From IMG/VR virus record IMGVR_UViG_3300021363_000006, positions 1 through 51,891 of that record: a DNA stretch of 51,891 nt. One strand, given 5' to 3'. How positions within the stretch are numbered: position 1 is the first letter of the stretch; each line of letters starts with the position of its first letter. A program made the translations under genes and the position numbers. This document shows, piece by piece, positions 1,694 to 47,247 of the stretch. Below the pieces are notes generated by a model that saw only the letters and a program-made list of their open reading frames with translations, did not search any database and had not been told where the DNA came from. The stretch comes from a virus (lineage: Duplodnaviria > Caudoviricetes).

Positions 1694-1779
1694 CTGTATC
1701 TGTCCCTTCCTTCGGAACTTTGGATTGCAGTAGACCACAGGGAGCTCGGTGGGTGGCTGCCGCGGAGATGGGGCAGCTG

Positions 1780-1902
1780 TTACTTGCCCTGACCCTTGGC
1801 GAAAGGGTTGACCTTCTTGCCAGCAGCTACCTTTTTCGCAGCACCCTTTTTGGGCTTCGGCATAGGCTTTGGTGCTGCAGCCTTCTTAGCCGGTGTAGCC
1901 AT
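1780..1902 (-). CDS. 40-aa Lys/Ala/Pro-rich basic peptide (PAKK, histone H1-like composition)
   Basis: Below the ORF-track cutoff. Reads MATPAKKAAAPKPMPKPKKGAAKKVAAGKKVNPFAKGQGK, with a GGAAGAGGA RBS right after the upstream stop. Confidence 0.7.
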   Translation of the reverse strand: MATPAKKAAAPKPMPKPKKGAAKKVAAGKKVNPFAKGQGK

Positions 1903-1917
1903 GTTGATCCTCTTCCC

Positions 1918-2283
1918 TTACTTCCTGGGCTGGGCGTTGGCCGCGTTCTCGACATCTACTTCCATCTGGCGCAACATCGCCTCGAGCGGGCTGTCTGCCC
2001 TGTGAGTATCGTCGCCGATCTTGCCAAGTACTCGGTCCACGATGTACTTGCCCGCGTCAAGCCGAAGCCGCTCCGAAGATCCGCGGATCGCAATGTCAAC
2101 CAGGGACATTGCAACCCTAGCTGAGTTCTCCCGGAACAGTCTCTGCGTCAGCGCCTCTTCGGACTCTTCAACGTGAGTAACTCTTTCCATCCGAACCGCC
2201 TCATCAAGGCGTCTCTCGTCCTCGGCGGACAACGGAACCGGCGTCCCGCTACCCCTGAACTCGGTCTCATCGTTGTCTCTCAT
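1918..2283 (-). CDS. Putative terminase small subunit
   Basis: First gene of the packaging arm; helical segment SERLRLDAGKYIVDRVLGK; TATAAT 6 nt before the ATG suggests a leaderless transcript. Confidence 0.5.
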   Translation of the reverse strand: MRDNDETEFRGSGTPVPLSAEDERRLDEAVRMERVTHVEESEEALTQRLFRENSARVAMSLVDIAIRGSSERLRLDAGKYIVDRVLGKIGDDTHRADSPLEAMLRQMEVDVENAANAQPRK

Positions 2284-2289
2284 GTTCTC

Positions 2290-2700
2290 ATTATATAGTA
2301 TCCAGCCTAGCTGACTTCCCGATCAAGGATACATTGGTAACACTATGTCTATGGCCCCTTATATAAAACAAGACGACCACTTGTGTTACGGGCTAGGCTG
2401 GTAACACCTCTCATACCCAACCTAGCATGTATCCCGTATAGGCTGGTATACCTTCAGAGCTTAACCTTGGCGCGTTAGCCCCACGGGTTCTGTGTAGGTA
2501 GGCCTCCGGACAGGTAATATAGTTAGGTATGCCTACATGTAGGTATGCGTTCCGACATGTAGGGGAGGCGACACAACCCTAAGACATGCCTAAATGATGT
2601 TGATATAGCTTAGGCATAACTTAGGCTGGATTTAGGCAGATTGTGTTGAATAGATCTTGGTAGCGCTATAAGATATAGATATAAGAAGAACGAGAGATAC
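2290..2700. promoter_or_regulatory. Divergent intergenic control region with TAGGC/GCCTA repeats
   Basis: Non-coding gap between the two arms. TTAGGC at 2610, 2621 and 2632 (11-bp period). TTGAAT-17-TAAGAT at 2646-2674 on +; TATAAT at 2295-2290 on -. Confidence 0.6.
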
Positions 2701-2915
2701 ACACAGATGGGGTTGGGATCATGAACACACTGGCCAAGCTTGCAGATGCAGTGTTGTTAAGGGTACACAACGACGGCCACCCAGGGGATGTACAGGAACC
2801 GGAAGATTGCCTTTACTGCCACCCAGAAGGGTAAGGTACCGTAACCTGGGAGCTGGTGCCAGGTTGCAGTACGTACCGGAACAAGCCGGTACGTTCTGTG
2901 ACAGGGAGACAAGCC

Positions 2916-3266: not shown

Positions 3267-3292
3267 GCGGAACGGAGTGACAGAGTGACGTA

Positions 3293-3923: not shown

Positions 3924-3957
3924 GAGCTGGTGAGACTCCAGTAGAGACACTGATAGG

Positions 3958-4033: not shown

Positions 4034-4378
4034 TTACTGGGAAGGAAAGTACCTCACGAGGTCGTAGTTCACATTCATGATGTAGGCTTCCCGATGGGCA
4101 AGGTCAACATCATGTCTCAGGGTGCGTTCCCTGTCCACACTATCGAGGTAGTCGGCGACAGCCTTAGGGCCTTGCGTTCGCTTCTTAGTACAGGCCTTAC
4201 AGTACCCGCCAGGCCTTCCGTACTGGGTTCCGTCCCTCTCGTACCAGATGTCCTCGACCTTGTCCAGGCCGTCACCAATCAGCTTGGCTGTGTAGTAGTC
4301 TCCGATGTACACCCAACGGTGACACATGGAGCACTCGATGGTTCCGTCTTCCTGTATGTATCTCTTCCCTCTTCCCAT
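4034..4378 (-). CDS. Counter-oriented putative zinc-binding protein
   Basis: CSMC and CKAC pairs. It has its own promoter and is the only clear - strand gene in the + arm. Confidence 0.65.
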   Translation of the reverse strand: MGRGKRYIQEDGTIECSMCHRWVYIGDYYTAKLIGDGLDKVEDIWYERDGTQYGRPGGYCKACTKKRTQGPKAVADYLDSVDRERTLRHDVDLAHREAYIMNVNYDLVRYFPSQ

Positions 4379-4384
4379 ATAATA

Positions 4385-4413
4385 AGTATAACGTAGTCAA
4401 TAGAGTTAAGCAA
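4385..4413 (-). promoter_or_regulatory. Sigma70-type promoter, probably leaderless
   Basis: TTGCTT-17 nt-TATACT, ending 6 nt before the ATG at 4378. Confidence 0.6.
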
Positions 4414-4419
4414 CGGGTT

Positions 4420-4790
4420 CACGTGATTATTCTTATTTCCTTAACAATATATTCTCTAACAAGGGGCGGTATATCTAGTATAACATGTAGTGTCGGACAG
4501 AGAGAAAGGAACAGGAAATATCAATTATAATAATATATATACTACCTTATTTATATTAACTACTATTCTGGTAACTTACATTAACGATACGTCCCTTAAC
4601 TGTCCAACTACGTCTGGAGCCAGAAAGTTACATTGTCACTTCCAGAAAGTTACATGGTCACTTAACGTCTGGGGCTAGAACATTACAGGTTCAGTAGGCA
4701 AGTAAGTGAGATACAAATCCCTAAATAAACTTAAGCTAGATTTAAGGTTTTATTAATTGATCCCGCTATATAATTAAAAGAAAAGCGCAT
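4420..4790. other. AT-rich region with 22-bp tandem repeat; candidate replication origin
   Basis: Most AT-rich stretch of the genome; CCAGAAAGTTACATKGTCACTT occurs twice at 4620-4663. Confidence 0.45.
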
Positions 4791-4818
4791 AACACAAAGA
4801 CTCAGGAAGGTAAGTGGC

Positions 4819-6019: not shown

Positions 6020-6377
6020 GTAGTGCATGACACTCAACTTCTCGTTGAGTGTTGTGTTCAGCGTACAGTAGACCACAGGGAGGCAGGCAATGCGAGGGCA
6101 GAGACGATTGCAAGTAAGGTCGAAAGTAGCTTGGTGGTTCCTGAACATCGCCAGTTTCGTACTGGCGTTCCTGATTACCATAGCAGTCAACTGGTACTTT
6201 CTAGACAGGAGGTAAGGACATGACGATTCGAGAACTGATCGACGAGCTCGAGGGCATTGCACTCAGGGAAGCTGCAATGGGAGACCAGACTGAGGTGCTT
6301 ACATTTCACGACTGCCAGGCACCAAACGTTTTCTACTCTGAAGATGGTCGAGTGTACATCGAGCCAGGCAGCTCCTG

Positions 6378-9279: not shown

Positions 9280-9489
9280 ATGGCTCAGATAGAAGTACCA
9301 GAACCAGATATAGAGGCGCTTGCCGATATACTGGACATGGCGATCGAGGAGTACCGTAGCGCTAAGGACCATACATTATCGTGTCCTAGTGTTGAAAGTC
9401 CGGAGCAGTTGCTAGTAGTTGTAGCTGACTACGATATGCGGCGAGCGGCACTACAGCGAGTCCGGATTCAGATTGAGGAGCAAAGGTGA
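9280..9489 (+). CDS. Hypothetical protein
   Basis: RBS GAGGA; GTGA overlap with the next gene. Confidence 0.55.
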   Translation: MAQIEVPEPDIEALADILDMAIEEYRSAKDHTLSCPSVESPEQLLVVVADYDMRRAALQRVRIQIEEQR

Positions 9490-9893
9490 ACGACAGCACG
9501 GAAGCTGCTCCAGCAGCCCTCCTAGGACATTGCACTTCGGTGTACGAGGAGATGGAGGCTCAGTCGCGAGTCATCACGGCTGAGCAGGTCGAGATGCTTG
9601 TGTACGAAGGCAAGCTCGTTGAGCTAGTGACAGTACACGTCGGACTGTCAGTACCTTACTACACCAAGGTGACCCAAGCACTTAAGGGCATGGGGTGTGC
9701 AAGGCAAATGCGACGTGGCGGAGGCAACAGTCCGTCGCAGTGGCAGTTGCTTCATGCACCCACGGTTGAACGATTCGACAAGTGGTTGGAGGCTATGGAT
9801 CCAACCCCCGACGAGATCGAGTACGCGACAGCACAGACAGTGCGGGACATGAACACGAGGCTACAGCGCCTCGAGAAAGCGATGGGTGTGTAG
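9486..9893 (+). CDS. Hypothetical protein, possible winged-helix
   Basis: GLSVPYYTKVTQALKGMGCARQMRRGGG pattern; C-terminal coiled coil. Confidence 0.55.
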   Translation: MNDSTEAAPAALLGHCTSVYEEMEAQSRVITAEQVEMLVYEGKLVELVTVHVGLSVPYYTKVTQALKGMGCARQMRRGGGNSPSQWQLLHAPTVERFDKWLEAMDPTPDEIEYATAQTVRDMNTRLQRLEKAMGV

Positions 9894-10073: not shown

Positions 10074-10409
10074 ATGAGTAACACAACGTTCGAGGAAGCT
10101 AAACAGTGTCCGAAGTGTAGCAATCCTGGTGAGGATCGTATCACCAGAATCGCTAAGGGCATGAAGCCTGGTACGACTACGCACCACATCTACTGCATGT
10201 CCGTTCTTTGTCCTTGGTACGACACGTGCTGGATTGTTCAGGTGAATCCTGATGGGTCAATTCCTCCGGCGACTAACCATGTTGGCCAGCCCAAGGTGTA
10301 CGAAGGCTTTGAGGGTCACGACAAGGAAGCCACAGACCTGATCGACGAGCTGAAGCGTTCTGCCGCTAAGCAGACTGAAGACGGATATGAGATCCGTCGC
10401 AACCGGTGA
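10074..10409 (+). CDS. Putative zinc-binding protein
   Basis: CPKC and C....C pairs. Confidence 0.55.
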   Translation: MSNTTFEEAKQCPKCSNPGEDRITRIAKGMKPGTTTHHIYCMSVLCPWYDTCWIVQVNPDGSIPPATNHVGQPKVYEGFEGHDKEATDLIDELKRSAAKQTEDGYEIRRNR

Positions 10410-10480
10410 TCTTGAGAGTGCTCGTGGCAGCGTACGTTATAGTTGTCGCGAGCATTTTCGTTGCTGCGGTATTACTTATA

Positions 10481-10606
10481 GTCTCTCTGTAAGTCTAACT
10501 CTCATGATCCTTAGGGCTATGTTCTCTATGAGGGCGTATTGGCATTCGGTTAGACATAGCTTAGACTCGGTCTCATAGAAAGTCTAAGGCTATCGAGAGC
10601 TTAGAG
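10481..10606 (+). repeat. Dispersed ~125-bp TTAGAC/GTCTAA element, copy A
   Basis: Shares exact 25-bp and 19-bp blocks (inverted) with 30911-31018 and several blocks with 40130-40255. Confidence 0.85.
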
Positions 10607-10626
10607 CTCGAGCGTGTGATGGCTGA

Positions 10627-10643
10627 CAGTAGACCACAGGGAG
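10627..10643 (+). promoter_or_regulatory. CAGTAGACCACAGGGAG motif (representative copy)
   Basis: Identical 17-mer at 1728, 6066 and 10627; the core AGACCACAGGG occurs at 11 or more sites. Confidence 0.75.
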
Positions 10644-10649
10644 GAAGCG

Positions 10650-13948: not shown

Positions 13949-14467
13949 ATGGCAAACAGGTACAACGACGAGTACAACGACTACGGAAATCCTACGGGTC
14001 GGTATGTCTTCCCGGACCCTGCCCCGGCAAGAACCACAGGGAGGCTGGGAAGCTTCAGACCTGTAACTGAGAAGGTCAAGGCAGTCGATCCGGAACTAGC
14101 AGAGGAGATCGAGATGAGTGCACTGAATCGCTACCAGATAGACCCGAACACGGCTGAGGCTCTCGAGCGTCGTGCCGATGCTATGCTGAAGCGTGCCGCA
14201 GAGATGCGCGCCAAGACCGAGCGCTTTGGCATCGACGACTTCCCAGATGGCTCCGTCATCATTTTCGACAAGGTCTTCCACGAGTATGGAGGCCGACCGA
14301 TCAGTCCGTCGAAGCCGTACCACTACGCAGCCATGAAGTTCGGCGGCGTATGGAACACTACCGGCCCGAAGTCTCCGAAGGCCTACACCTGGGAGGAACT
14401 CATCAACTGGATGGGTGAAGGTGTACAGGAGATTTACTACGTCAACGAGATCACGAGGTTCGTCTAG
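13949..14467 (+). CDS. Hypothetical protein
   Basis: RBS GAGG; coding-like codon usage. Confidence 0.6.
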   Translation: MANRYNDEYNDYGNPTGRYVFPDPAPARTTGRLGSFRPVTEKVKAVDPELAEEIEMSALNRYQIDPNTAEALERRADAMLKRAAEMRAKTERFGIDDFPDGSVIIFDKVFHEYGGRPISPSKPYHYAAMKFGGVWNTTGPKSPKAYTWEELINWMGEGVQEIYYVNEITRFV

Positions 14468-16073: not shown

Positions 16074-17294
16074 ATGCCAGACTCGGCAGTCGACATCAAC
16101 TGGTTCATCGACAAACGTCTCGTCCATGAAGTGCATACATCTGAGCGGAAAGCGTTTCGTGGATGCCGTCGTAGGTGGGACTGGTTCTCTCGGCAGAGGT
16201 ACTATCCGAAGGTGACAGAGAAGCCTCTGAGCTTCGGCATTGCCTACCACAGCGGTCTCCAGGTGTACTACGACCCGAAGAACTATGACTTCTCTCGTCT
16301 CGTCCGGACCGAACTAGCCATCGCAGCCTTCGTTGCCAAGACGAACCAGCAGCGCAAGGAGATCCTCGAGTCAGGCCTTAAGGAAGACGAAGAGGTCAAC
16401 GAGGACTTCGACGCGCGTGTCACTCTCGGCATTGGCATGTTGCGGTACCTCGCGAGTAGCATAGCACCACAGGAAGAGGAGAAGTGGACTCCCGTCGAAG
16501 TTGAAGTGGAGTTCATGGTCCCGATTCCACATCCCGAAACGAACGTCCACATGGTCTGTGGGTGTAAAATCTGCTATGAGAAGTGGATGTTGTCCGATGA
16601 GGGTAAGAGGCAACACGCATTAGGACAGCTCTGGACTGGACTTCCTGTTGTCTATGCTGGTCGCATCGACTGCTTGATGAAGGACGAGTACGGAGACCTC
16701 TGGATTGTCGACTGGAAGACAGCAGCACAGATCGACTCGTCCCTAACCTTCCTAGACCTAGACGACCAGGTCGGATCCTACCCCTGGGCCCTGTGGTCTA
16801 TTGGCATGAGGGTCCGCGGGTTTATCTGGGCGCAGCAGAAGAAGGGCTTTCCTCAGCCTCCGAAGCAGAACAAGACCACTCGGCTCGGTCGGAAGTTCTC
16901 CGTAGCTGTGGGGCAAGACACTGACTACGAGACGTATAAAGATACGGTCTCCAAGCAGGACACAGCTGCGTATGAGGAAGGGCTGTACGACCAGTTCTTG
17001 GTGTTCCTGAAGAACGAGAACATCAAGTTCTTCCACCGTGAGCCTATCATGAAGACGGAGGAGGAGTTCCTCCAGCTGCAGAAGAACCTCGGCCAGGAAG
17101 TCCTTGACATGCTACGTGAGGACCTGTACCTCTATCCGAGTCCTGGACGCTTTAGTTGTGACCGTTGCACCTTCCTGGTTCCATGTGTCGAACAGACTCG
17201 AGGCGGAGACTACTTGTACGCCATCGAGACCTTGTTCGAGAAGAAGACGCCGTACTACCTTCGCGAAGAGCCTTCGACCGAGCGGTCGACCTAG
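16074..17294 (+). CDS. PD-(D/E)XK exonuclease (RecB/Cas4-like)
   Basis: SERKAFRGCRRRW, GIAYH, GRIDCL...IVDWKT, and C-terminal CDRCTFLVPC. Confidence 0.85.
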   Translation: MPDSAVDINWFIDKRLVHEVHTSERKAFRGCRRRWDWFSRQRYYPKVTEKPLSFGIAYHSGLQVYYDPKNYDFSRLVRTELAIAAFVAKTNQQRKEILESGLKEDEEVNEDFDARVTLGIGMLRYLASSIAPQEEEKWTPVEVEVEFMVPIPHPETNVHMVCGCKICYEKWMLSDEGKRQHALGQLWTGLPVVYAGRIDCLMKDEYGDLWIVDWKTAAQIDSSLTFLDLDDQVGSYPWALWSIGMRVRGFIWAQQKKGFPQPPKQNKTTRLGRKFSVAVGQDTDYETYKDTVSKQDTAAYEEGLYDQFLVFLKNENIKFFHREPIMKTEEEFLQLQKNLGQEVLDMLREDLYLYPSPGRFSCDRCTFLVPCVEQTRGGDYLYAIETLFEKKTPYYLREEPSTERST

Positions 17295-17400: not shown

Positions 17401-18690
17401 ATGACTGAGCAACCCGTTACCAGAACAGAGTTCAATGCACTGTCGGCCCGAGTCGACAAGTTGGACGGCGGAGTGATTGTTACTCCTCCTGTCACCTCTG
17501 TCGGATCTGTCGTCGTGACTCCTGGCGTGAACAGTGTTCATGTCGAGTGGATCGCGCCAACGGGGAAGACCCAAGCCAATGCTAGTAGCAGTCGCAATGG
17601 TGTCGACAACACCGGAGCTGGTCCCTGGACGAACAACTTCACGACCCAGACGCACGACGACTTCGACAAGCTCCTCGCTGGTACGTCCTACACGTTCACC
17701 GTCCTCGTGACCTACACGGACGGTACGAGTGAGAGCTTGACAGGAACGGGAACGCCTACGGCTCCTGTCACCGGAACAGGTACTGGCGGAGCGATCCTCG
17801 CCGGTGTCGGAGGATGGGAGAGTGGTGTCTGGGGTCGGAACGATGCCTCGACCGTCACCAAGTTCGCTTCTGATCGTGGCGCGCCGGTGAAGAACATCGG
17901 AGTGTTCCCCGATCGCAATACTGGATGGGCTGGTCTCGCCAACAACTGGTGGACCGTCTCTATCCCGGCTGGTGCCATCGCAGCCGGAGCTCACCTGTCG
18001 GTGGCTCTCCCGCTGTGGCCCGAGTCGGGCAGTTCGGGTCTGGGTTCGGCTACTGACCAGCAGTGGAGGGACATCGCCAACAGCATCAAGGCGGTCGACC
18101 CAACGGCGCACATCCGGCTAGGCTGGGAGATGAACCTAGGGAACAACTGGCACATCTCCGCAGGCAACCGTTCAGCCTGGATCGCCGAGTGGCGCCGCGC
18201 AGCCACCCTGATGAAGTCCGTCGCTCCCGGTTTCCGCTTCTGCTGGAACCCCAACAGTGGTGGGGACCAGACTGGGACGAGCTCTCGTTCGGCCTTCCAG
18301 GCGGTCAAGGACTTGTGCTACTCATACGGCATCGACAGCTACGACGCGTGGCCGGGATGTAACACCACCACAGGGCTCAACGTGCACAAGACTGGCGTTG
18401 GATTCCTGGGCGAGAGCTACGCCTATGCCAAGGCCAATGGAGTCAAGTTCGCTCTTCCGGAATGGGCGCCAACGAATGGATCTGCCTGGGCAGGCAGCCA
18501 GGGTGGCGACGACCCAACCTACGTCAAGTACTACATGGAGTTCATGCGAGGGCATGCGACTGACATGGCGTTCGATTGCTACTTCTTCGAGCCGCAGGGC
18601 TATCTCCGCTCTGACATCTTTACTGGTAACATGCCAAACGCTTCTGCTGAGTATCGCAACCAGTGCACCAACGCCGTCGGTGTTCAGTAA
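17401..18690 (+). CDS. Glycoside hydrolase, GH26-like, with N-terminal fibronectin III-like domain
   Basis: IRLGWEMN (acid/base Glu), FCWNPN, GIDSYD, FALPEW (nucleophile Glu); VEWIAP...LLAGTSYTFTV is FN3-like. Confidence 0.75.
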   Translation: MTEQPVTRTEFNALSARVDKLDGGVIVTPPVTSVGSVVVTPGVNSVHVEWIAPTGKTQANASSSRNGVDNTGAGPWTNNFTTQTHDDFDKLLAGTSYTFTVLVTYTDGTSESLTGTGTPTAPVTGTGTGGAILAGVGGWESGVWGRNDASTVTKFASDRGAPVKNIGVFPDRNTGWAGLANNWWTVSIPAGAIAAGAHLSVALPLWPESGSSGLGSATDQQWRDIANSIKAVDPTAHIRLGWEMNLGNNWHISAGNRSAWIAEWRRAATLMKSVAPGFRFCWNPNSGGDQTGTSSRSAFQAVKDLCYSYGIDSYDAWPGCNTTTGLNVHKTGVGFLGESYAYAKANGVKFALPEWAPTNGSAWAGSQGGDDPTYVKYYMEFMRGHATDMAFDCYFFEPQGYLRSDIFTGNMPNASAEYRNQCTNAVGVQ

Positions 18691-18747
18691 CTGAGAGCGC
18701 TTCTCCTAGCACTACGCAAGTATCCAACCCAACCGAAAGGACTTGTA

Positions 18748-19329: not shown

Positions 19330-19349
19330 TCCTGAGAGAAGGAAAAGTC

Positions 19350-21338: not shown

Positions 21339-21498
21339 CACAGCACCACAGGGTGGGCCGGGCATCTTAGGCTAAGCGCACAAGCGTGAGGAAACCGGGA
21401 TGGGTAACAGTCAGTATTGCGTGTTAGACCCGGGAGTGGGAGGACTTGCAAGTGGTACCCCACACTGTACTACAACAACGAGAGACAGGCGGAGCTGA

Positions 21499-25181: not shown

Positions 25182-25186
25182 GGAAC

Positions 25187-25906: not shown

Positions 25907-26549
25907 ACCGCTTGCCAACCCTCACAGAAGCAAGATCGACCACCCTTACCACTACTCGTTGTTCATGCCTGAGCAGAAAGAGGTACCCAGATTGTTCGAT
26001 CTCGACGCATCTTCCGATGCCGCTCAAAGGTTCCTCCAGTCTCTAGGCGCCGCGTGGGATGGATCTGAAGAAGACCACAGGGATAGAACGCCACGTCGTA
26101 TGGCAACCATGTTCAGGCAGATGACAGAGCGTGAAGAGTTCAACTTCACCACTTTTCCTGCTAAGGCTCAAGACATGGTAACGTTAGGCCCAATCCCCTT
26201 CTACACCATGTGCGCCCATCACACGGCCCCGTTCTTTGGGAATGTATGGATTGGGTATGTGCCGAACGCTAGCATCGCAGGGCTGTCCAAGTTCGCTCGC
26301 GCAGTCAAGTACTGTGCGAAGGGATTCCACGTTCAGGAGGAGCTGACGGCTCAGATCGCTGATTTCATCGACAAGAAGTTAGACCCTATGGGTGTGGCTG
26401 TCGTAGTGAAGGCGGAGCATCTATGTATGGCGATGCGAGGGGTCCAACAGCCGGGCGTCGTCACCACGACCTCGTCCATGCTAGGCGCGTTCGGAGATCA
26501 CAAACGGACGGCAAAAGCGGAGTTCATGTCACTCATCCAGGGAGGCTAA
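25896..26549 (+). CDS. folE: GTP cyclohydrolase I
   Basis: TPRR, MCAHH, GLSKFAR, VQEELT, HLCMAMRGV. Start uncertain. Confidence 0.95.
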   Translation: MESKPLANPHRSKIDHPYHYSLFMPEQKEVPRLFDLDASSDAAQRFLQSLGAAWDGSEEDHRDRTPRRMATMFRQMTEREEFNFTTFPAKAQDMVTLGPIPFYTMCAHHTAPFFGNVWIGYVPNASIAGLSKFARAVKYCAKGFHVQEELTAQIADFIDKKLDPMGVAVVVKAEHLCMAMRGVQQPGVVTTTSSMLGAFGDHKRTAKAEFMSLIQGG

Positions 26550-26551
26550 CT

Positions 26552-27162: not shown

Positions 27163-27191
27163 CCCTGTGGTCTACTGAAAGGTGTAACCCC

Positions 27192-27965
27192 GTGCAGATG
27201 GTATACATCCCACCGTTGCAGATGTTAGATCAGGCAGGCAACTACAGGATGCAGTTGATGCTTCCGCAGTGGGTAGGGAACCTCACGTACGACAAGTTCT
27301 TCAAGTACCGTGCAGGTATGGGTGATCACATCATCCTGGACAATGGTGCCAACGAAGGCTACAAGATCAGCCTGGACCGCTTGTGTACACTCGCCAACAG
27401 GTATGGTGTGTCGGAGCTGGTGCTACCTGACACTATGGGAGACTTCGAGGAGACGCTTGGACAGGCAAAGCTATTCCTTGGCCACTACGCTTCCTCGTGT
27501 CCTAAGTGGACGAAGTTCGGGTTCGTACTTCATGGTGCCAACTATGAGGACGCTGCAAGGAACTTCGCTAAGCTTCGAGGCATCAAGGAGCTGTATGACA
27601 TGATCTCAGTCATCTACATTCCCCGAATGCTTGTCACGAAGAAGGAGCCAGGTGCTCGGATTAGTTTGGCTTACTACATCCATGGACACAACAACAGGTT
27701 CGTCTCGCGTAACCAGGAGAAGCAGATACATCTACTTGGCGCCTCTCCTATCTGTATGACAGAAGTTCGGGATGCGCGTAAGAGCGTGTCAGCCATTCGC
27801 AGCATGGACACGTCTGCTCCGTATGTGTACGCACTAAAGGGAAAGCATGTAGATGATGGCGTAGTCCACAGGGAGCATGACACCTACTTCTACGCCCTCA
27901 TTGACCCTGGTACTCGTAAGCTAGCCCTTCAGAGTTGTGAACTGATGGACAGCTGGGTCAAGTGA
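27192..27965 (+). CDS. TGT-fold protein, DpdA-like DNA 7-deazaguanine transglycosylase
   Basis: IILDNG, VLPD, FVLHG, IHLLG and RSMDTS follow the TGT motif order; lies in the que/folE cluster. Confidence 0.7.
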   Translation: MQMVYIPPLQMLDQAGNYRMQLMLPQWVGNLTYDKFFKYRAGMGDHIILDNGANEGYKISLDRLCTLANRYGVSELVLPDTMGDFEETLGQAKLFLGHYASSCPKWTKFGFVLHGANYEDAARNFAKLRGIKELYDMISVIYIPRMLVTKKEPGARISLAYYIHGHNNRFVSRNQEKQIHLLGASPICMTEVRDARKSVSAIRSMDTSAPYVYALKGKHVDDGVVHREHDTYFYALIDPGTRKLALQSCELMDSWVK

Positions 27966-30920: not shown

Positions 30921-31018
30921 AGTTAGACCAAGTCTAAGCTATGTCTAACCGAATGAATCGTAGACCCAAGGGAGTAATGAGGGGCAAGATCCTTCACAGG
31001 TTAGACTTACAGAGAGAC
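30911..31018 (-). repeat. Dispersed TTAGAC/GTCTAA element, copy B
   Basis: AGTCTAAGCTATGTCTAACCGAATG and GTTAGACTTACAGAGAGAC are exact reverse complements of blocks in copy A. Confidence 0.85.
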
Positions 31019-31137
31019 CTCGAAACATTGCAGACAGGAGACCACAGGGTGGGCTTAGCTATTGCTTTTGTGGCAGGAGCCGTTGCGGCTTGTGCAGGAT
31101 TACTAATCTGGTTGGCCTACAAGTTTAAGGATATCTG

Positions 31138-31632: not shown

Positions 31633-31800
31633 GGACTACATCGAGCTGAAACTAATTGCCTCACTGATGGCAATGTACGGGCGGGACGAACTGACGATGA
31701 CGTTAGGTGAGCTGGACAAGGTCTTCAGCCTCTACGCCCCTGTGGTCTCTACGACGTTCGATGGCCGTGTGTTTGTCCATCTGCTAAGGAGATGACAGAA

Positions 31801-33823: not shown

Positions 33824-35496
33824 TACGTAGTCCTAAAGTTGAAGTAGTTTAGTTTAGGTGCGCAGGCAGTAACGCAGTGGATTGTGAATCCTGTAGCGCT
33901 CTCTGCAGAACATCTATCGTCACCCTGAGAAGCTCCAGATAGCTTGAACGAGTAGATTACATTTGGCGTCGAACTGAATGTCGTCCCATAAGATAGGATG
34001 AAGTCAGTATTAGAGCCTGGACTCCACGACCCACAAAACACAAGGGCATCACCGCCAATGACGTTGTCGGCGCTAAACACACCTGACACCCACCATGACT
34101 GGTCATCGAACATTGCGAGCTCAGCTGCAACTGAGCCCGAGTTCTGTACGTTAAGTTTAGCCTGACCACCATTTAAGTCTACGTAGCCGCCATTGATAAC
34201 ACCGTTGGACATGATACCAAGAGTGGCACCAGCACCTGTTAAGGCAAGTCGCCCACCTTCGTTGTTACCTCCAGATGTCCTAAACGACTCGAGGATAATG
34301 CCAGAAGCGTTCGCCATAAACAACCGATGCTTACAAGTCACACTATTGTATGTGAATGCTGCAGTGTTAATACCAACCATTGGGTTGCCTGACCCATCGA
34401 TTGGTGTATTCATAAATGCTGGATTGGTTCCGCTAGCATCATAGAACGTCAAGGTTGTGCGGTCTGCTATAGACGTCATATCGACATATGGGACGCCAGC
34501 CGATGGGAAAGCTGTACGAAATGCTCCAGTAATGGTAACTGCGCCCGTAGAGGCTTTGACGTCGAACGTTTGCTGGCCAGACGAGTTAAACGCCTGAAAC
34601 CCATTCGAGTTCATTTCGGCTCGCGCACCAGTGAGACTAGTTGCAATACGGCCCGAAATAGTAATGATTGCCGAGATAACACCTGCGGTAAGCTTGCCCA
34701 CGCCTAGAGATGCGATATCCCCATCAGCTGCCTGGACAGGCGTTCCAGACCCCGCAGTCGACGCTACGCTTCGATTGCCTACAGTATCAACAGCGACAAG
34801 CCTAGCATACTGTACTGTGCCATAAGCCAAGCCAGTCGCGACCCAAGTTCCACCACCACGTAAAATAGTGCCGACCAGAGTAGCAGTAGAAGGAGTAAAC
34901 GTAGGACTTGAAGTAGAGAGGTGTACTTCACAAAATCTAAAGTCCGTCGGCATAGGGTTGGAGCTAACGTCCAAACCGTTCCAGTCAATCGCGAGCTGCC
35001 CCAGGTATGGAGAGACCACAGGGGTAGCTGGCTGGAATGGTGCAGTCGCGTCAGCAGTAGTAGTGTTACTAATGGAGCTGAAGTTGCCTAGGGTTCCCTT
35101 GACGGTTCTTGCTCGGACACGGAACGTGACGACTTGACTTTGAGTAAACGGCCCAACGTCCGCAAACGTGTCTGTCGTAAAGAGTTCCGCAGTCCAATGC
35201 GTACCATCAAGAGACCAAGACGTAAGGTACCCATCAAGCGCTTCCTTATTGTACTCTGACGGGTCATCTGGAACTGCTGTCCAACTATACCGCATCATGA
35301 CACGATAGTTGTCACCGTCAGTTGTTATAGTCTGGGTCGCAAGAGCTAGTCCAGTAATGGCGAGACTACCAATGACGACGACATCAGTAGAGGGGGCGCC
35401 AGACACACCTCGTTCAAGTCTAGCAATGCGACGCTCTAGCATCTTGTAGTAGTCAGCTAGATCAATCTGGCCTGTGGAGTTGCTGAAGCCTACCAT
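33823..35496 (-). CDS. Minor tail / tail tip protein with FN3-like domains
   Basis: TFRVRART and YARLVAVDTVGNRS FN3-like strands; Gly/Ser/Thr-rich C-terminus; synteny. Confidence 0.75.
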   Translation of the reverse strand: MVGFSNSTGQIDLADYYKMLERRIARLERGVSGAPSTDVVVIGSLAITGLALATQTITTDGDNYRVMMRYSWTAVPDDPSEYNKEALDGYLTSWSLDGTHWTAELFTTDTFADVGPFTQSQVVTFRVRARTVKGTLGNFSSISNTTTADATAPFQPATPVVSPYLGQLAIDWNGLDVSSNPMPTDFRFCEVHLSTSSPTFTPSTATLVGTILRGGGTWVATGLAYGTVQYARLVAVDTVGNRSVASTAGSGTPVQAADGDIASLGVGKLTAGVISAIITISGRIATSLTGARAEMNSNGFQAFNSSGQQTFDVKASTGAVTITGAFRTAFPSAGVPYVDMTSIADRTTLTFYDASGTNPAFMNTPIDGSGNPMVGINTAAFTYNSVTCKHRLFMANASGIILESFRTSGGNNEGGRLALTGAGATLGIMSNGVINGGYVDLNGGQAKLNVQNSGSVAAELAMFDDQSWWVSGVFSADNVIGGDALVFCGSWSPGSNTDFILSYGTTFSSTPNVIYSFKLSGASQGDDRCSAESATGFTIHCVTACAPKLNYFNFRTT

Positions 35497-36515
35497 TACA
35501 GCTCCCTCAGGTCTTGGGTGTACAAGACTATAGTCTCGTCGCCACTCTTGTTGACAGTAACCTGTGCACCCTTATACCTGTACTGCTGATTGATACTGAG
35601 GTACCCATCCAGGATAGTAACCTTGATCTTGTCACCGTACTGAATGACACTCGTGTCGAAGATGTTAATCCCCTGCCCTCGTAGGACAAGAGTTGGATAA
35701 GCGCTCACATCGGATCGCTGATCGCTAACGTGAGTTGTGTACGCAGTCAGCTCATTGGCTGTCGCTGCGTCTTTGAGGGCGTCTGCATACTCTCTTAGAC
35801 CGTACAATGCCCGGTTCGTTGTGTTGATCCCAACGTCGTAGCTAGGATCAGGTCCTTGAACTACAACCCTGTTACGCGTATACTTGCCTTGGATGTTCAG
35901 CGCGTAGGAGCTAATATGCTGAGGATATACCAGGTGCAGACCTCTATCCGTAGCAGGCCTAGGATATATAGCGTTGAAGGCCCTCGTTACAGGATTGATC
36001 CAGAAGTCAAAGCCATCATCTAGCTCTGCGAAGTCCTGAATGGCCTCCAAGATATACTTGCAATCGTACGTAGTCCATGAGATGCTTCTAGTAACACCCG
36101 TACCGAGCGTGCCCGATACAATTCCTAGAGCACCATCAGTTCTAGCTTGAGAGTCACTAATTAGGTCCCACGCAATGTTCACTTGGTCGATTACACTATA
36201 GTCAACATCTTGAATGAGTCTGACGTCTAGATAGTCTTCCAAGCTTTGTGCACTACAGCTCAGAGACCTAGAGTCTGTCGACACTGAGATGTCCCAAAGA
36301 GGTCCTGCGGCGACGCATACTCCATTACGCATCACCCAAACCTCGTGGAGACCTGCCCGAATAGTCGTCATCGACACTAGCTCATGGTAGAGAGGAGTGC
36401 TCCAGCGAATCCCTGTGGTGCCATTAAAGCCTACTTCGAATTGCAGATTGTAAAACGGGATCTTACAAACGAAAGTCCCGTCGCGTAACCTTGTCTCAAG
36501 CCAGTACCTAGTCAT
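35496..36515 (-). CDS. Minor tail protein (baseplate hub / Tal-like)
   Basis: Second gene after the tape measure; YGLRE and YGDKIKV patterns. Confidence 0.75.
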   Translation of the reverse strand: MTRYWLETRLRDGTFVCKIPFYNLQFEVGFNGTTGIRWSTPLYHELVSMTTIRAGLHEVWVMRNGVCVAAGPLWDISVSTDSRSLSCSAQSLEDYLDVRLIQDVDYSVIDQVNIAWDLISDSQARTDGALGIVSGTLGTGVTRSISWTTYDCKYILEAIQDFAELDDGFDFWINPVTRAFNAIYPRPATDRGLHLVYPQHISSYALNIQGKYTRNRVVVQGPDPSYDVGINTTNRALYGLREYADALKDAATANELTAYTTHVSDQRSDVSAYPTLVLRGQGINIFDTSVIQYGDKIKVTILDGYLSINQQYRYKGAQVTVNKSGDETIVLYTQDLREL

Positions 36516-39480: not shown

Positions 39481-40081
39481 TACGTCCTCCTCCTCCTGCT
39501 GTTTCGTTCCTGTTCGAGTCGCTGCTTCTCGTGCATAGCATTCAGCCCTGCAGTTAAGAGCTCGATGTGGTATGGGTCCTGATCAAGCAACCCTCCAGCT
39601 CTTGGTAGAACGTGCAGCTCCTTGCACAGGAACGTAATCCGTATGGCGAGATCAACTTCGTCATCTGGTTCGCGATCTAGGATGACACTGGCGTTGACTC
39701 GCCCTTGGAGTTTCCCTCGTCATCGTCCCCGTCGAAGTTGTTCATGTCCTCGATGAGCTTCTCGATTTCCTGTCCAACGCGCGGGTCCAGGGAAGCAACA
39801 TCCACAGGGTTGGAGAGGTTGAGCAGCTGACCTTCGATGCGTTCCAGGTTGTGTTCGATAACACAATAGCGGAACTCGAACAAGTTCACATTCTTGTTCG
39901 CCATCGCGATCTCGCCTGCAACGTCGTTCTTACCCTTGCCGTGGTTGGAGAAGGTCAACTTGAGCATGGCACGTCGTTCCAGGATTTGACCATAGTCCAT
40001 CTTTCGGAGCACAACAAATGCTCCGTCAAGAGTCTTGAGGTCAAACCTCTCAGTGCTATTGGATCTGATTGCTACGGGCAT
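39480..40081 (-). CDS. Tail assembly chaperone pair (short form 40081..39677; long form by -1 frameshift to 39480)
   Basis: Slippery GGGAAAC at 39716-39710; the -1 frame is open (LQGRVNASV...LPRAGGLLDQD...RRRRT) to a TAG overlapping the tape measure GTG. Confidence 0.85.
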
Positions 40082-40129
40082 TGCATTTCCTCCCTTAAGG
40101 AATTTCTCGCCCTGTGGTCTACTAGATTT

Positions 40130-40255
40130 CTCTAAGCTCTCTAACCCTTAGACTTCTCATTAGACCGAGTCTAACCTAAGTCTAATCGAAGTTCCCTGAG
40201 GCCCTAATACTACTCGACCCCGCAAGATCCTTCTTAGTTAGACTCTCAGAGAGAC
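40130..40255 (-). repeat. Dispersed TTAGAC/GTCTAA element, copy C
   Basis: Begins immediately after the tail tube stop; shares CTCTAAGCTCTC, CCTTAGACTT and AGACCGAGTCTAA with A, and GCAAGATCCTTC with B. Confidence 0.85.
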
Positions 40256-41176: not shown

Positions 41177-41421
41177 TACACTTCGCCACCCTCCGTGAAC
41201 TCGACCGTGACATGCTCATTGCCTGCGAACGCCTCAACCAGCGAAGGTCCCGGCCCGTATCCGCCTTCTGCAAGAACCACAGGGTTGGAGGCTCGGTAGT
41301 GTTCGTCGACTTCATCGTTGACTCTGTACGTTCGACCATTGAGGAGGATCTGGTCGAGGCCTGTGATGTCGATCTCCCCATCCTTGGGGAGGTTCGGAAA
41401 GTTGAAGCTAATGGTGTACAA
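41176..41421 (-). CDS. Hypothetical protein
   Basis: RBS GGAGG; TAATG-coupled to the tail tube gene. Confidence 0.6.
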   Translation of the reverse strand: MYTISFNFPNLPKDGEIDITGLDQILLNGRTYRVNDEVDEHYRASNPVVLAEGGYGPGPSLVEAFAGNEHVTVEFTEGGEV

Positions 41422-44327: not shown

Positions 44328-44347
44328 TGCTTAGTACACCTCCTTCT

Positions 44348-44764
44348 CTAGTAAGACGCGCCGGGAGTGAGCAGCATGTCGAAGAACTCGTTGGCATTGC
44401 TCGTAGCCGTCAGTGCAATGCCAAAGACTGGCAACGGCTGAGCACCTGCGATCGCACGAGTCACAACGATTCCTCGAGAGCTAGAGTCGTTGCTGATACG
44501 TGCACCCTTGGTAACGGCTGCACCGCACTTCACGCGGGCGATGCCCATCAGGTCGACCTTGATGAAGGCCTTGCCCGTAGCGATCTTGGCCGCATCGATG
44601 TCCTCGGTGCAAACACCAAACGGAAGCAAGGTGTTCGCAGCGGACAATGTAATCACGGACTGCTCGACAGTGCCCTGAATGACCAGGAGACCTGAAGCGT
44701 AGGCGGTGACAGGCGTCTGAGCCAGAAAGCCTTTGCTCAAAACGTAATTCGGACCAACACCCAT
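44348..44764 (-). CDS. Capsid decoration/cement protein (DUF2190-like)
   Basis: GIARVKCGAAVTKGARI and FGIALTA; between the protease and capsid genes. Confidence 0.75.
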   Translation of the reverse strand: MGVGPNYVLSKGFLAQTPVTAYASGLLVIQGTVEQSVITLSAANTLLPFGVCTEDIDAAKIATGKAFIKVDLMGIARVKCGAAVTKGARISNDSSSRGIVVTRAIAGAQPLPVFGIALTATSNANEFFDMLLTPGASY

Positions 44765-44766
44765 TT

Positions 44767-45876
44767 CTAGTTACCTCCCTGCACGGCGTAGGAGCCCATC
44801 GCGTAGTCGCGGTAGGCGTCAGGGTTCTCCAGAGCCACCTTGGCTACAGCGTCAGCGTAGTTGAGCTTGTGGTCAGTCTGGACCTTCTGAACCAGCTCGC
44901 CGAACACCTTGACAGGGTCCTGCTCGGTACCGGGGTTCTGATGACCAACCTCACCAAGCTTGACAAAGCCTGTCTCACCAAGCGCCTTGACAATCGTGGT
45001 GACCTTGGTACCAACGGCGTCAGTCGACTCGTGCAGGATCTGCACCAACGTCTCCACGACAGTCGCAGGAAGCGCAACCTTCTTGGTACGAAGCTCTTCG
45101 TTCAGAGTAGTAACACCGTTGCGAACCTCAGCAAGGCGCAAGGCTGCAGTGGTACGGGCACTCTCTTCCCGCAACTGCTGCTGCGACTCCATCAGCAGCT
45201 TGATCGCAGGGTTGGTCTCGGCCAGCTTCTTGAGTTCGGTCTCGGCGTCGGTCAGCTTGACCGGCTCCTTCTCCGCCTTCTCCTTAAACTCCTTGATCTT
45301 GGCCAAGAGCTGCTCTTCGGTAGCGTCCTCGGCCAGACCCAGAAGTTCAGCGAACTTCTTCGGATCCATATCATTCCCTTCTTCTGGGTCGTCCGTACCT
45401 TTGAGCATCTCGGACAGGTTGAGAGGAGACAGGTCCTTCAGGAAAGGCCTGTTGGTGATTGCTCCGCCACTGAGGACATCCGAGAACTTGGTCTGGCTCT
45501 TCGGATGCACCCACTCATCGACAAACTCAGGGGAGAAGTACTTGTAGGCCTTCGACCGAATCTTGGTCGCGGCGTCCTTCGTCCACTCGACAAACAGGTA
45601 GAGGCCGTCAGTACGAACTTCAGCCTTCTTCACCCATCCTGCAGCCTCGTCGGTTCGCTTCTTGTGATCGTAATCAACGTCAGGCTCAATCTCTCGCACC
45701 TTGTTGTTGACACTATCTGCAAACCTCTGAAGGCGTTCATCAGAGAAGTCGATCTCACCATAAACGACGTGATCGTACTTGCCTCGAGTCATGGCGTGGA
45801 TCCAGGATGATGGAGTTTCTCCCTCACTTAGTACAACCTTATGCAGGTCGACCAAGTAGCTCATCCGCTGCGTCAC
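44767..45876 (-). CDS. Prohead protease/scaffold (Mu I-like)
   Basis: DYDH, AAGW, VEWT, YKYFSPEF, AITNRPF; helical scaffold C-terminus. Confidence 0.88.
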   Translation of the reverse strand: MTQRMSYLVDLHKVVLSEGETPSSWIHAMTRGKYDHVVYGEIDFSDERLQRFADSVNNKVREIEPDVDYDHKKRTDEAAGWVKKAEVRTDGLYLFVEWTKDAATKIRSKAYKYFSPEFVDEWVHPKSQTKFSDVLSGGAITNRPFLKDLSPLNLSEMLKGTDDPEEGNDMDPKKFAELLGLAEDATEEQLLAKIKEFKEKAEKEPVKLTDAETELKKLAETNPAIKLLMESQQQLREESARTTAALRLAEVRNGVTTLNEELRTKKVALPATVVETLVQILHESTDAVGTKVTTIVKALGETGFVKLGEVGHQNPGTEQDPVKVFGELVQKVQTDHKLNYADAVAKVALENPDAYRDYAMGSYAVQGGN

Positions 45877-45942
45877 TGTACCACCCTCCTTACCTCTTAT
45901 TGTAGAGTATACCTAGTAGTGAACTACACGAACACGTATATC

Positions 45943-47247
45943 TTAGACTATCTTAATCGCACCATCATCGCATGTGACGTAATACGAGATGTACAAGGTA
46001 GTTGCAAGGTCATCAAGCTTGAAGGATATGTACTTCGGAAGCAATGTACCATCGTCAACGAGCTGAGCCAGGTCTGCTGCTACGCAGCTGTCGAACGCTT
46101 CCTTGGCAAAGGCTACAACCAGGTCAACAGCAGAAGCATTATCAGCCGCCAAGATGCTAACGACTACGTTGGTTGTAGTATCCGCACCATTGCAAGTCTC
46201 GCTTGCGAAGACCTGAACAACAACCGTACCAGCCTCGGAGGCTACAACACTATCGCCAAGACCTGCTCGAGCTAGAATGCCTACAGCGTCTACTCCAGCG
46301 GAAGCCTCTGCGGTAACTGGGAGGGCTGCTGCGATGGAGGAGCCTTCACTGCTCGCAGCATTGTCAAGGCCGCTTCTCGTCGTCGCCGTGACCGCTTCAG
46401 TACTACCAGAAGTGTCAGCAGCACTAGTAGTGACAACAAGTGAGCCTACCGAATCTGCGCCTGTAGAAGTCTCAGACGCTGCAGGGAAGAAGGACTGGAA
46501 GACCGTTCCAGCAGTATCTACACCTGCAGACGTTTCAGTTGCAGAAGTAGCAACTGCAAGAGTCGTTGATGCATCGCTACCTGAACCAGTCTCCGTCTGG
46601 GTCCGAGACGTAGCAAGGCTTGCAGCATCTGCGCCAGATGCGACATCAGCGGAAGTCGTGGACGCAGAGACCACAGGGAGGTCTGATCCAGATGACGTGT
46701 CTGCCGAGCTCGTTGCAACAGCTTGGGTGTTTACAGCATCTGAACCCGTACCTGTATCCGAGTCGCTAACTGGAACTATGGATAGTGGTGCAGGTAGTGC
46801 AGGTAGGACGATGTTGGTTTGGCGTGTGTAAAGTCGCCTCGCTACGTTTAGAGCAGCTGAGTTGACAACGAGTGGCTGTCGAACGGGTGGGTCGAAGACC
46901 TGAAGCGTCCCTGCATCGACTCCAGATCCTATCTCAGTACCAGTACTTGACGCTGCAAGTGTTCCTGCGTCTACAGACGATCCCGTCTCAGTCGCTGAAG
47001 TTGACGTTGTTGTCGCACTTACAGCATCCGTACCTGAGGACGTTTCTGTCGCAGTGAAGGTTACAGTCTGGGTGAGTACAGAGTCATTGCCAGTAGGGGA
47101 TTCAGTGTCTGTCCTCGACGTTGCAAGTGTTAGGACAACATCTACTGCAGAGCTGGTATCTGAGTCTGCAATTGGTGTAGGCAGCAGGAAGACAGGCGTC
47201 CGCAATACGATCGGGACGTTAGGATAGCCCCTACCAGCTCTTGCCAT
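45943..47247 (-). CDS. Ser/Thr/Ala-rich repeat protein, putative virion appendage
   Basis: Recurrent (D/E)T.(S/A)G.DA units about 19-20 aa apart; lies in the head module. Confidence 0.65.
   Translation of the reverse strand: MARAGRGYPNVPIVLRTPVFLLPTPIADSDTSSAVDVVLTLATSRTDTESPTGNDSVLTQTVTFTATETSSGTDAVSATTTSTSATETGSSVDAGTLAASSTGTEIGSGVDAGTLQVFDPPVRQPLVVNSAALNVARRLYTRQTNIVLPALPAPLSIVPVSDSDTGTGSDAVNTQAVATSSADTSSGSDLPVVSASTTSADVASGADAASLATSRTQTETGSGSDASTTLAVATSATETSAGVDTAGTVFQSFFPAASETSTGADSVGSLVVTTSAADTSGSTEAVTATTRSGLDNAASSEGSSIAAALPVTAEASAGVDAVGILARAGLGDSVVASEAGTVVVQVFASETCNGADTTTNVVVSILAADNASAVDLVVAFAKEAFDSCVAADLAQLVDDGTLLPKYISFKLDDLATTLYISYYVTCDDGAIKIV

Follow-up and report, generated by a model that had tools for sequence, protein, structure and literature searches.

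The 11-mer AGACCACAGGG occurs in 11 exact copies on the two strands of a siphophage genome (Duplodnaviria; Caudoviricetes) that is held in IMG/VR as record IMGVR_UViG_3300021363_000006. We refer to this whole record, which is 51,891 bp long, is rated 100% complete and has a GC content of about 53%, as the window. The word is the window phage's dialect of a clade-wide DNA-level signal, whose core is CCACAGG or, more broadly, S-CACA-S (S is G or C). The sites are selected for at the DNA level and their positions are conserved. The regularity of their spacing along each strand suggests, as evidence and not as proof, that the word is read directionally. Tentatively, we regard the sites as recognition or loading sites for the phage's own primase-helicase.

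Copies of the motif in the window

Seven of the exact copies of the 11-mer lie on the plus strand and four on the minus strand (Table 1). All of them had been listed in an initial annotation made from the sequence alone, in which the starts 1728, 6066 and 10627 are those of a form extended by CAGT. This extension is present on four of the 11 sites (1732, 6070, 10631 and 27163), all four intergenic, and the site at 40110 has TAGT. In 100 dinucleotide-preserving shuffles the 11-mer was expected 0.08 times per genome and was found at most once; the initial estimate of a chance expectation far below one is therefore correct. If one mismatch is allowed, there are 17 matches against 1.31 expected. 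The four near-copies noticed at the outset are also present, one of them with a single mismatch (12542, minus strand) and three with two mismatches each (14031, 41274 and 51345, plus strand).

Genes were called with our own caller, which uses codon usage, and the 89-90 called proteins were annotated by means of PHROGs and Pfam. For a codon-aware null model, synonymous codons were permuted inside the called genes, gene by gene, in 200 rounds. The window has five genic copies of the 11-mer against a mean of 0.17 and a maximum of one in the shuffled genes, and 13 genic copies of the core CCACAGGG against a mean of 1.99 and a maximum of six. Because this genic excess is measured under synonymous shuffling, coding and codon usage do not explain the motif. 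The initial annotation had argued the same from genic copies in differing frames, and the genic copies do lie in frames 1 and 2 and in both orientations. Two copies had been described as running into a ribosome-binding site. These are the copies at 6070 and 10631, which end 9 and 8 nt upstream of an ATG and whose GGG joins the following AGG to give GGGAGG.

The core and its dialects in related genomes

The major capsid protein of the window matched 31 related IMG/VR loci, and ten related records were fetched whole (G001-G010; the window is G000). G010 is a near-copy of G007, hence there are nine independent relatives. The core CCACAGG(G) is strongly over-represented in eight of these nine, and the ninth (G007, together with G010) has the variant CCACACGG, present in 12 copies in G007. 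The GC content of the related genomes ranges from 42 to 57%. The most frequent 8-10-mers of the relatives, obtained with no prior on the word, contain the same core. CCACAGGG is found 21 times in the window, 18, 10, 13, 12, 29 and 11 times in G001 to G006, respectively, and 12 times in G009, the capsid protein of which is only 34% identical to that of the window. CCACAGG itself is present in 41 copies in G008 (GC content 42%) and in 32 copies in G009.

The bases around the core differ from lineage to lineage. The dialect of the window and G001 is (C)AG(T/A)AGA-core, that of G003 and G004 is AAC-core-CC, that of G005 and G006 is T-core, and G008 and G009 have CA-core-TA and CCC-core, respectively. 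Under the codon-aware null model there is a large genic excess of the core in G001 (13 copies against 2.1), G005 (27 against 3.06), G008 (36 against 8.35) and G009 (28 against 10.37). The genic excess is small in G002, G003, G004, G006 and G007, where the long dialects lie mostly between genes. Short dialects that are dense in genes and long ones that are sparse and lie in spacers are to be expected if sites are placed where coding constraints allow.

A survey baited with the primase gave 169 related contigs. The best 80 of them were retained, and the counts refer to the 53 retained loci with a length of 12 kb or more. In these loci CCACAGG occurs 427 times, versus 152 times for the reversed word. 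A search of IMG/VR for the exact 14-mer gave 56 single matches, and seven of the 56 loci have at least three core copies; these seven are probably relatives.

Two further observations concern the words found in related genomes. In many related replication arms the top 8-mers are palindromic (ATGATCAT, GATCGATC, CTTCGAAG and CATCGATG; loci L158, L159, L165, L166, L170, L172 and L222). Close inverted pairs of the motif are found in G005 (24238-24261 and 46422-46470) and in G007 (37996-38046 and 44963-45026); in the G005 pair at 24238, TGT and ACA are 12 nt apart.

Similar words in cultured phages

Nucleotide searches with the window against GenBank phages gave no match, and the identity of its proteins to those of isolates is at most 32%. 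Words similar to the core are over-represented in cultured phages. Stenotrophomonas phage Jojan60 has the same two-arm layout as the window, and its primase is 28% identical to that of the window over the full length (E 5e-83). The 42 kb fetched for this phage include 38 copies of GCACAGG, 32 of which are genic against 9.2 expected. The same word has 37 copies in Curtobacterium phage Yappy (50 kb), 34 of them in genes versus 11.2 expected. In Arthrobacter phage Molivia two words are over-represented, GGCACAC with 41 copies (37 in genes, 7.4 expected) and GGCACACCC with 14 (12 in genes, 0.85 expected).

In E. coli phage 9g (NC_024146; loci L146 and L147) the word T[GA]ACCACA occurs 52 times in 56.7 kb on both strands, and 45 of the copies are genic against 7.25 expected. 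The strands of the 9g sites alternate more often than by chance (35 switches versus 24.6). The 7-mer GACCACA is common to the 9g word and the 11-mer of the window, and Sak4 and the Que genes are all that the two phages share by BLAST.

For G007, G008, Jojan60, Yappy, Molivia and 9g, the words were chosen with the k-mer tables already in view. The excess amounts to 8 to 16 standard deviations, therefore multiple testing does not remove this result. The passages on promoters, repeats, motifs and consensus sequences in the papers on the 9g genome and on 9g restriction do not contain the 9g word, although other parts of these papers may mention it. The literature search found no paper naming Jojan60.

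Conservation, placement and orientation of the sites

Six of the nine sites that can be aligned between the window and G001 are intact, at a background of 10.2% identical 8-mer windows and a nucleotide identity of 72.5%. Three of four sites are kept between G003 and G004, where the background is 9.4%. Conservation in related phages had been proposed in the initial annotation as a check of the motif, and it is seen both in the clade-wide enrichment of the core and in the sites kept in G001.

Eight of the 21 core copies of the window are intergenic in a genome that is 91% coding. The intergenic copies number 8 of 13 in G003, 9 of 12 in G004 and 10 of 12 in G007, and 2 of 29 in G005 and 5 of 41 in G008. 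As regards transcription, the replication arm of the window has eight co-oriented and four antisense copies, and the structural arm has four and five. When 11 genomes are pooled, the numbers are 63 and 50 in the replication arm and 34 and 54 in the structural arm. Among intergenic copies 25 are sense and 27 antisense; the sense ones lie 2-33 nt upstream of a start codon and the antisense ones 0-50 nt past a stop codon. These counts confirm the mixed orientation to which the initial annotation had drawn attention as a difference from co-oriented stoperators.

A strand bias was observed in the pooled soil clade (117 to 84, P = 0.024) and also with 9g included (149 to 104, P = 0.006). It is absent from the replication arms of the 53 primase loci and so comes from the structural arm; we do not use it as evidence.

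The 87-88-nt windows around the sites do not differ in folding from random windows, and the core shows no preference for paired positions. Rfam gave no match in the window, and terminator scans gave none or were at chance level. A hairpin, a terminator, a structured RNA or a hairpin single-strand initiation (ssi) signal was rejected because of the random-like folding of the sites and the lack of an Rfam match.

Spacing of the sites along each strand

Of all the results, we find the spacing of the sites the most informative. With both strands combined, the coefficient of variation (CV) of the gaps between sites is 0.61 in the window (P = 0.011) and is similarly low in G001, G003, G006 and G008. 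Both strands of each genome were also tried separately. The 13 sites on the plus strand of the window have a CV of 0.35 with a mean gap of about 4 kb, an evenness reached by none of 1500 random sets. The per-strand CV is 0.46 in G001 (P = 0.003), 0.29 in G004 (P = 0.004), 0.43 in G005 (0 of 1500 random sets), 0.36 in G006 (P = 0.011) and 0.35 in G007 (P = 0.005); one strand of G003 is also within 0.29-0.50 with P < 0.05, and both strands of G008 have a CV of 0.66. The 32 sites on the minus strand of 9g, which is its majority strand, are spaced by about 1.8 kb with a CV of 0.36, again with none of 1500 random sets as even. On the minus strand of the window, a stretch of about 17 kb between 51745 and 16789, which spans the record ends, is free of sites.

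In total, per-strand CVs of 0.29-0.50 were obtained in 8 of the 11 genomes tested, and P was below 0.05 on at least one strand in 9 of the 11. Such per-strand values are below the combined CVs of 0.61-0.65. Per-strand series that are more regular than their sum fit two independent series of sites.

The primase-helicase as a candidate reader

The protein with a DNA-binding-type domain that is common to all motif-bearing lineages is the primase. The window primase matches phrog_10514 at 3.4e-104 and Pfam RepB_primase at 1.5e-08. It shares phrog_10514/phrog_3022 with the primases of Jojan60 and 9g, the helicase part of which is called by Pfam as DUF3987. In the predicted model from the Atlas, residues 655-746 match winged helices of the MarR type with TM-scores of 0.65-0.73, and C-terminal sequence features have a weak likeness to MCM winged helices; a PDB profile search with the primase gave nothing. 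The residues of the winged helix vary with the dialect in a way that tracks the groups and could not be separated from phylogeny.

A DUF3987 protein is described, in the relevant part of the source, as a 5'-3' helicase partnering an AEP primase (PMC11724360). According to the passages on layout and priming in another source, P4 alpha and pRN1 ORF904 combine a primase, a helicase and a winged helix, and priming by the pRN1 protein requires the template GTG (PMC2777425). The window primase, with its AEP domain, helicase part and predicted winged-helix-like end, resembles these two proteins. The arrangement of the sites differs: known sites of origin binders are clustered at 1-2 origins and genome-wide selection of primase words, which are 3-5 nt long, is not known, whereas here 20-50 longer sites are distributed over both strands. 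Sequence-specific priming at pentamers is a feature of T7 gp4. The complement of the 11-mer contains TGGTC, which we take to be one of the T7 primase sites.

We suppose that the word would be read strand-specifically by the phage's own replication machinery, and that the likeliest reader would be the AEP-helicase primase with the winged-helix-like end. The sites would be places where the primase-helicase is recruited or where primers are begun, that is, an entry point every few kb on either strand. The flanking bases would co-evolve with the enzyme, giving lineage dialects, and the sites would occupy synonymous positions within genes as well as spacers. In the wider form of this proposal, a “replication lattice” of selected, strand-specific and evenly spaced primase-helicase sites would be common to a large group of siphophages (the soil clade, 9g, Jojan60, Yappy and Molivia); we consider this form possible but somewhat more doubtful. 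Primase sites would be looked for on both strands at kb intervals, and the per-strand spacing shows this arrangement. We infer two steps here, from a shared protein to a reader and from even spacing to priming.

A number of points weigh against the primase-helicase as the reader and against the signal as we describe it. The link between the primase and the word is solely one of co-occurrence. A helicase, a Cas4-like exonuclease, Sak4, SSB and a family-A DNA polymerase are common to these phages as well, and one of them could be the reader instead. Since primase sites have a length of 3-5 nt, selection for sites of 8-11 nt would be out of the ordinary. The primase of 9g is a remote relative of that of the window (BLAST E 0.005, PHROG cross-hit 8.9e-07), yet the core of the motif is shared. 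Clavibacter phage CN1A has a related primase (26% identical) and no clear motif (12 copies versus 5.6). The top 8-mer contains the core in just 7 of the 53 primase loci, a criterion that is too coarse at a window size of 22 kb. In the replication arms of these loci the strands are equal (206 to 221), and no origin-like switch of orientation was seen. The spacing is not significantly regular in G009, in Jojan60 or, in the combined test, in G002; in addition, several incomplete contigs entered the spacing test as circles. At least one conserved genic site, the antisense copy in the primase gene at 21854, corresponds to the codons of an invariant A-L-W, and protein constraint alone may explain it. 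Finally, a Shine-Dalgarno sequence or a stop codon directly adjoins many of the intergenic copies, and copies lie in composite repeat modules; this arrangement would suit a regulator too.

Alternative explanations

The last of these points leads to the main alternative, namely dispersed operator-like sites analogous to stoperators, which we nevertheless hold to be unlikely. A small phage protein would bind the word and block or tune the starts of transcription and translation. The candidates for this protein are the products of two early genes (Table 1), which are adjacent or overlapping in five relatives (G001, G003, G004, G005 and G008). The predicted local distance difference test score (pLDDT) of the winged-helix model is 85.8, and its best Foldseek rows are winged helix-turn-helix regulators (E 0.008-0.05). 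For the zinc-ribbon protein (model pLDDT 78) there is a weak resemblance to the methyl-CpG-binding domain (MBD) and NrdR. Pfam, NCBIfam and the Atlas gave nothing useful for the small early proteins. An operator would also suit the intergenic share of the sites, which is far above the non-coding share in the window, G003, G004 and G007 (the genomes are 82-93% coding), the sense copies close before starts, including those that overlap GGGAGG at 6070 and 10631, and the three homologous, regulatory-looking modules of the window with one copy in each.

The orientation of the sites, however, is free of transcription, as the almost equal numbers of sense and antisense intergenic copies show, whereas stoperators are reported in the passages on orientation to fail when reversed (PMC9283540). 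Nearly all copies of the word lie in genes in G005, G008, 9g and Jojan60, where they are evenly distributed. Regularity along each strand is unexpected if orientation is irrelevant to the reader, and our own hidden Markov models (HMMs) found neither of the two early proteins in 9g, Jojan60 or G006. An even spread in coding DNA, a separate series on each strand and an orientation free of transcription fit a signal of DNA metabolism better than an operator. The initial annotation had proposed a binding site for a phage or host protein used in regulation, genome organisation or packaging. A recognition signal at the DNA level stands; a mainly gene-regulatory role is not well supported, and the sites may have a role in packaging or genome organisation.

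A Chi-like signal also belongs to DNA metabolism, and we regard it as rather improbable. The word would then stop or modulate, in a directional manner, a helicase-nuclease moving from a DNA end (either the phage SNF2-type helicase with the Cas4-like exonuclease or a host enzyme), so that phage DNA would be protected and a switch to Sak4-mediated recombination would follow. Like Chi sites, which are over-represented directional 5-8-mers running through coding DNA without long gaps, the signal is directional, genome-wide, present on both strands, free of long gaps and indifferent to genes. The window has a module of helicase, exonuclease, SSB and Sak4, and annotated counterparts of it are found in Jojan60, 9g, Yappy and Molivia. 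In G001 (which has terminal repeats) and in 9g (which has a known pac end), the terminase-side end has sites of the majority orientation within 0.4-0.9 kb. Chi differs from the word in being owned by the host and enriched in its genome, whereas the word seems to be phage-specific. The word of 9g differs from E. coli Chi, which shows no enrichment in this phage (4 copies versus 2.8 expected). The low frequency of the word in bins that hold relatives of the window phage (see below) is another point against a Chi-like role, a weak one as binning is unreliable, and so is the 17-kb stretch of the window with no site on the minus strand. We know, from general background and not from a search, of no phage-encoded enzyme that recognises Chi.

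A conserved host protein was the other kind of reader allowed for in the initial annotation, and the data disfavour it. The word could be similar to a DnaA box or could be a host word of the DNA-uptake type carried by the phage; we consider this improbable. The constancy of the core over phages with very different GC content and hosts is what a conserved host protein would give. The T-CCACA dialects (G005 and G006) match what we take to be the last six bases of the DnaA box. The flanks do not match the rest of the box, and DnaA sites are not known to be arranged as single boxes every few kb. The persistence of the core across GC contents of 42-62% and hosts from two phyla also argues against a host reader. 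Close relatives, recognised by their capsid protein, are located on contigs binned with Pedobacter, Chitinophagaceae (two bins), Acidimicrobiaceae and one further bacterium. In these five bins, the assignment of which is unreliable as binning in general, CCACAGGG has 36-185 copies in 3.4-8.4 Mb, i.e., one per 20-94 kb, which is about the level of the reversed control. In the phages its density is one per 2-5 kb. None of the five bins reaches the density of the phages, and these bins give no support to a host-wide word.

Single-strand nicks made at the word by the conserved HNH endonuclease (30615-30920) are still less probable. Site-specific single-strand nicks are reported in T5-like and some Pseudomonas phages, the word is asymmetric, concerns one strand at a time and recurs at intervals, and the HNH gene is present in 8 of 10 relatives; our own HMM, however, gave no HNH match in the motif-bearing G008, G009, 9g and Jojan60.

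The weakest alternative, to which we give hardly any credence, is a promoter or transcription-start element used by the host RNA polymerase with a phage factor: some sense copies do lie just 5' of a Shine-Dalgarno sequence and about 21 nt 3' of the repeat GTCTWAC-N3-AGTCT with -10-like hexamers, but about half of the copies are antisense or genic, the genic copies have no common upstream element, a sigma-70 scan was at chance level (10 versus 10.9 expected, none at the motif), and PHROGs and Pfam gave no RNA polymerase or sigma match among the window proteins.

Comparison with known dispersed repeats

The stoperators of Cluster A mycobacteriophages (L5, TipsytheTRex) are described, in the parts of the source that concern them, as asymmetric words of 11-13 bp present in more than 20 copies per genome and dispersed genome-wide, some of them in short intergenic gaps; a monomer can read them, and they are co-oriented with transcription (PMC9283540). 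The asymmetry, the copy number (11 exact 11-mers and 21 core copies) and the dispersal are similar here. The mixed orientation, the many genic copies and the regular spacing on each strand are different. Moreover, no match to an integrase or immunity repressor was obtained, so the combination of a repressor with a temperate life style was not found here.

T1-like phages (T1, TLS, Stevie), which are lytic siphophages, have asymmetric 22-bp repeats in 16-20 copies per genome; the sections of the sources that treat these repeats place them mainly between genes and pointing with transcription (PMC4319613, PMC11447400). Their sequence is unrelated to the word, only 8 of the 21 copies here are intergenic, and the orientation is mixed. 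The same sections do not describe regular series on both strands for the T1-like repeats (PMC4319613, PMC11447400).

Genome layout and neighbouring features

The window consists of two convergent arms. The plus arm (2916-31795) begins with small early genes and includes genes of the SNF2-type helicase, the PD-(D/E)XK exonuclease, Sak4, SSB and the primase (21499-23739), and further those of QueC/QueD/QueE/FolE, a family-A DNA polymerase fused to a uracil-DNA glycosylase (UDG) domain, the HNH endonuclease and a resolvase-like protein. The genes for lysis, tail, head, portal and terminase lie in the minus arm (31864-51891, running on into 2-2190). As the large terminase gene is split across the record ends (2-1000 and 51448-51891), the record is circularly permuted. 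A tRNA scan of the window found no genes. In agreement with the initial annotation, no integrase or repressor was matched by PHROGs or Pfam among the called proteins, though distant forms may escape such searches.

Table 1. Motif copies, composite modules and genes of candidate readers in the window
Feature	Position	Strand	Context
Exact 11-mer with CAGT	1732..1742	+	Intergenic in minus-strand packaging arm, antisense to neighbours; followed by GGGAG and GTG at 1753
Exact 11-mer with CAGT	6070..6080	+	Intergenic; GGG+AGG forms Shine-Dalgarno 9 nt before ATG 6090
Exact 11-mer with CAGT	10631..10641	+	8 nt before ATG 10650; 3' end of composite module 10410-10649
Exact 11-mer	16789..16799	-	Antisense within PD-(D/E)XK exonuclease gene; position conserved in G001
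Exact 11-mer	26072..26082	+	Sense within GTP cyclohydrolase I gene; position conserved in G001
Exact 11-mer with CAGT	27163..27173	-	Intergenic; complement begins right after stop codon at 27162
Exact 11-mer	31039..31049	+	In composite module 30921-31137, upstream of resolvase-like gene
Exact 11-mer	31738..31748	-	Antisense in last small gene of plus arm
Exact 11-mer	35013..35023	+	Antisense in tail gene; position conserved in G001
Exact 11-mer (TAGT)	40110..40120	-	Intergenic, sense, 28 nt before tail-chaperone ATG; in module 40082-40255; site at same boundary in G002
Exact 11-mer	46668..46678	+	Antisense in 434-aa head-module gene
Core-only copy (CCACAGGG)	14034..14041	+	Genic, sense
Core-only copy	18368..18375	+	Genic, sense
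Core-only copy	21346..21353	+	7 nt past SSB stop codon, 145 nt before primase start; conserved in G001
Core-only copy	21854..21861	-	Antisense in primase gene (about 355 nt in); codons of invariant A-L-W
Core-only copy	27866..27873	+	Genic, sense
Core-only copy	36411..36418	-	Between two tail genes, or within longer open reading frame form
Core-only copy	39802..39809	+	Antisense in tail-chaperone gene; conserved in G002, not in G001
Core-only copy	41277..41284	+	Antisense; conserved in G001
Core-only copy	47812..47819	-	Genic, sense
Core-only copy	51745..51752	-	Sense, N-terminal part of large terminase gene
Composite intergenic module	10410..10649	+	GTCTA/TAGAC repeats, 28-nt element, 11-mer; homologous to 30921-31137 and 40082-40255
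Composite intergenic module	30921..31137	+	Holds 11-mer at 31039
Composite intergenic module	40082..40255	-	Holds 11-mer at 40110
Early gene, predicted winged helix (candidate reader under the operator alternative)	9486..9893	+	Conserved
Early gene, zinc-ribbon protein (candidate reader under the operator alternative)	10074..10409	+	Conserved; usually adjoins winged-helix gene in relatives
Primase-helicase (proposed reader)	21499..23739	+	RepB'-type AEP domain, helicase part, C-terminal winged-helix-like domain

The window has a further family of repeats, GTCTWAC-N3-AGTCT, at 10552-10566, 30932-30946 and 40169-40183. In G006 it is found at about 7257-7336, 19143-19223, 34703-34783, 41628-41708 and 51834-51914. 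In the relatives these repeats form divergent pairs about 50 bp apart, often just 3' of the winged-helix/zinc-ribbon gene pair, and the pairs look like back-to-back promoters or a dimeric operator. The two genes of this pair are about 300 bp apart in G007, and in the window a 62-aa open reading frame lies between them. In two independent searches the fold of the zinc-ribbon protein weakly resembled methyl-CpG-binding domains.

Positions 23720-27965 of the window hold a 7-deazaguanine (queuosine-precursor) gene set with QueC, QueD, QueE and GTP cyclohydrolase I; after these come two small proteins and one of 257 aa (27192-27965). The latter has a weak DUF6610 match and no BLAST likeness to DpdA of 9g. 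Judging by this gene set, the phage DNA may be modified. G008 and G009 have the motif and no Que genes, therefore the 7-deazaguanine genes were rejected as its cause.

Several other features of the window were observed. The 725-bp non-coding stretch 2191-2915 likely holds the physical ends and early promoters. Another non-coding stretch (4313-4818, 506 bp) is AT-rich, has short direct repeats and lies between a doubtful minus-strand open reading frame and the next early gene. The replication arm has a moron-like insert at 17401-19793, which is poorly conserved in relatives and encodes a 429-aa protein without a family match and two small proteins with signal-peptide-like N-termini. The family-A DNA polymerase (28055-30355) has a fused N-terminal domain of the uracil-DNA-glycosylase superfamily.

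Significance

Dispersed asymmetric repeats are already known from a few phage groups. The present data add the conservation of the core over a wide and mostly uncultured clade, the evenness along each strand, and the similar words in cultured phages, notably 9g. The evenness along each strand points to a directional process along the DNA and not to gene control. There is a fair chance that the word is a new kind of genome-wide replication signal, and E. coli phage 9g makes the idea testable at the bench. If the primase-helicase is the reader, the sites would show a replisome with a long recognition word shaping synonymous sites and spacers throughout the genome. If the lattice of sites exists as proposed, it would be the first known case of a dsDNA phage genome that itself encodes priming or loading signals along its whole length. 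Whichever protein reads it, the word is a marker for this group of phages and a constraint for recoding their genomes.

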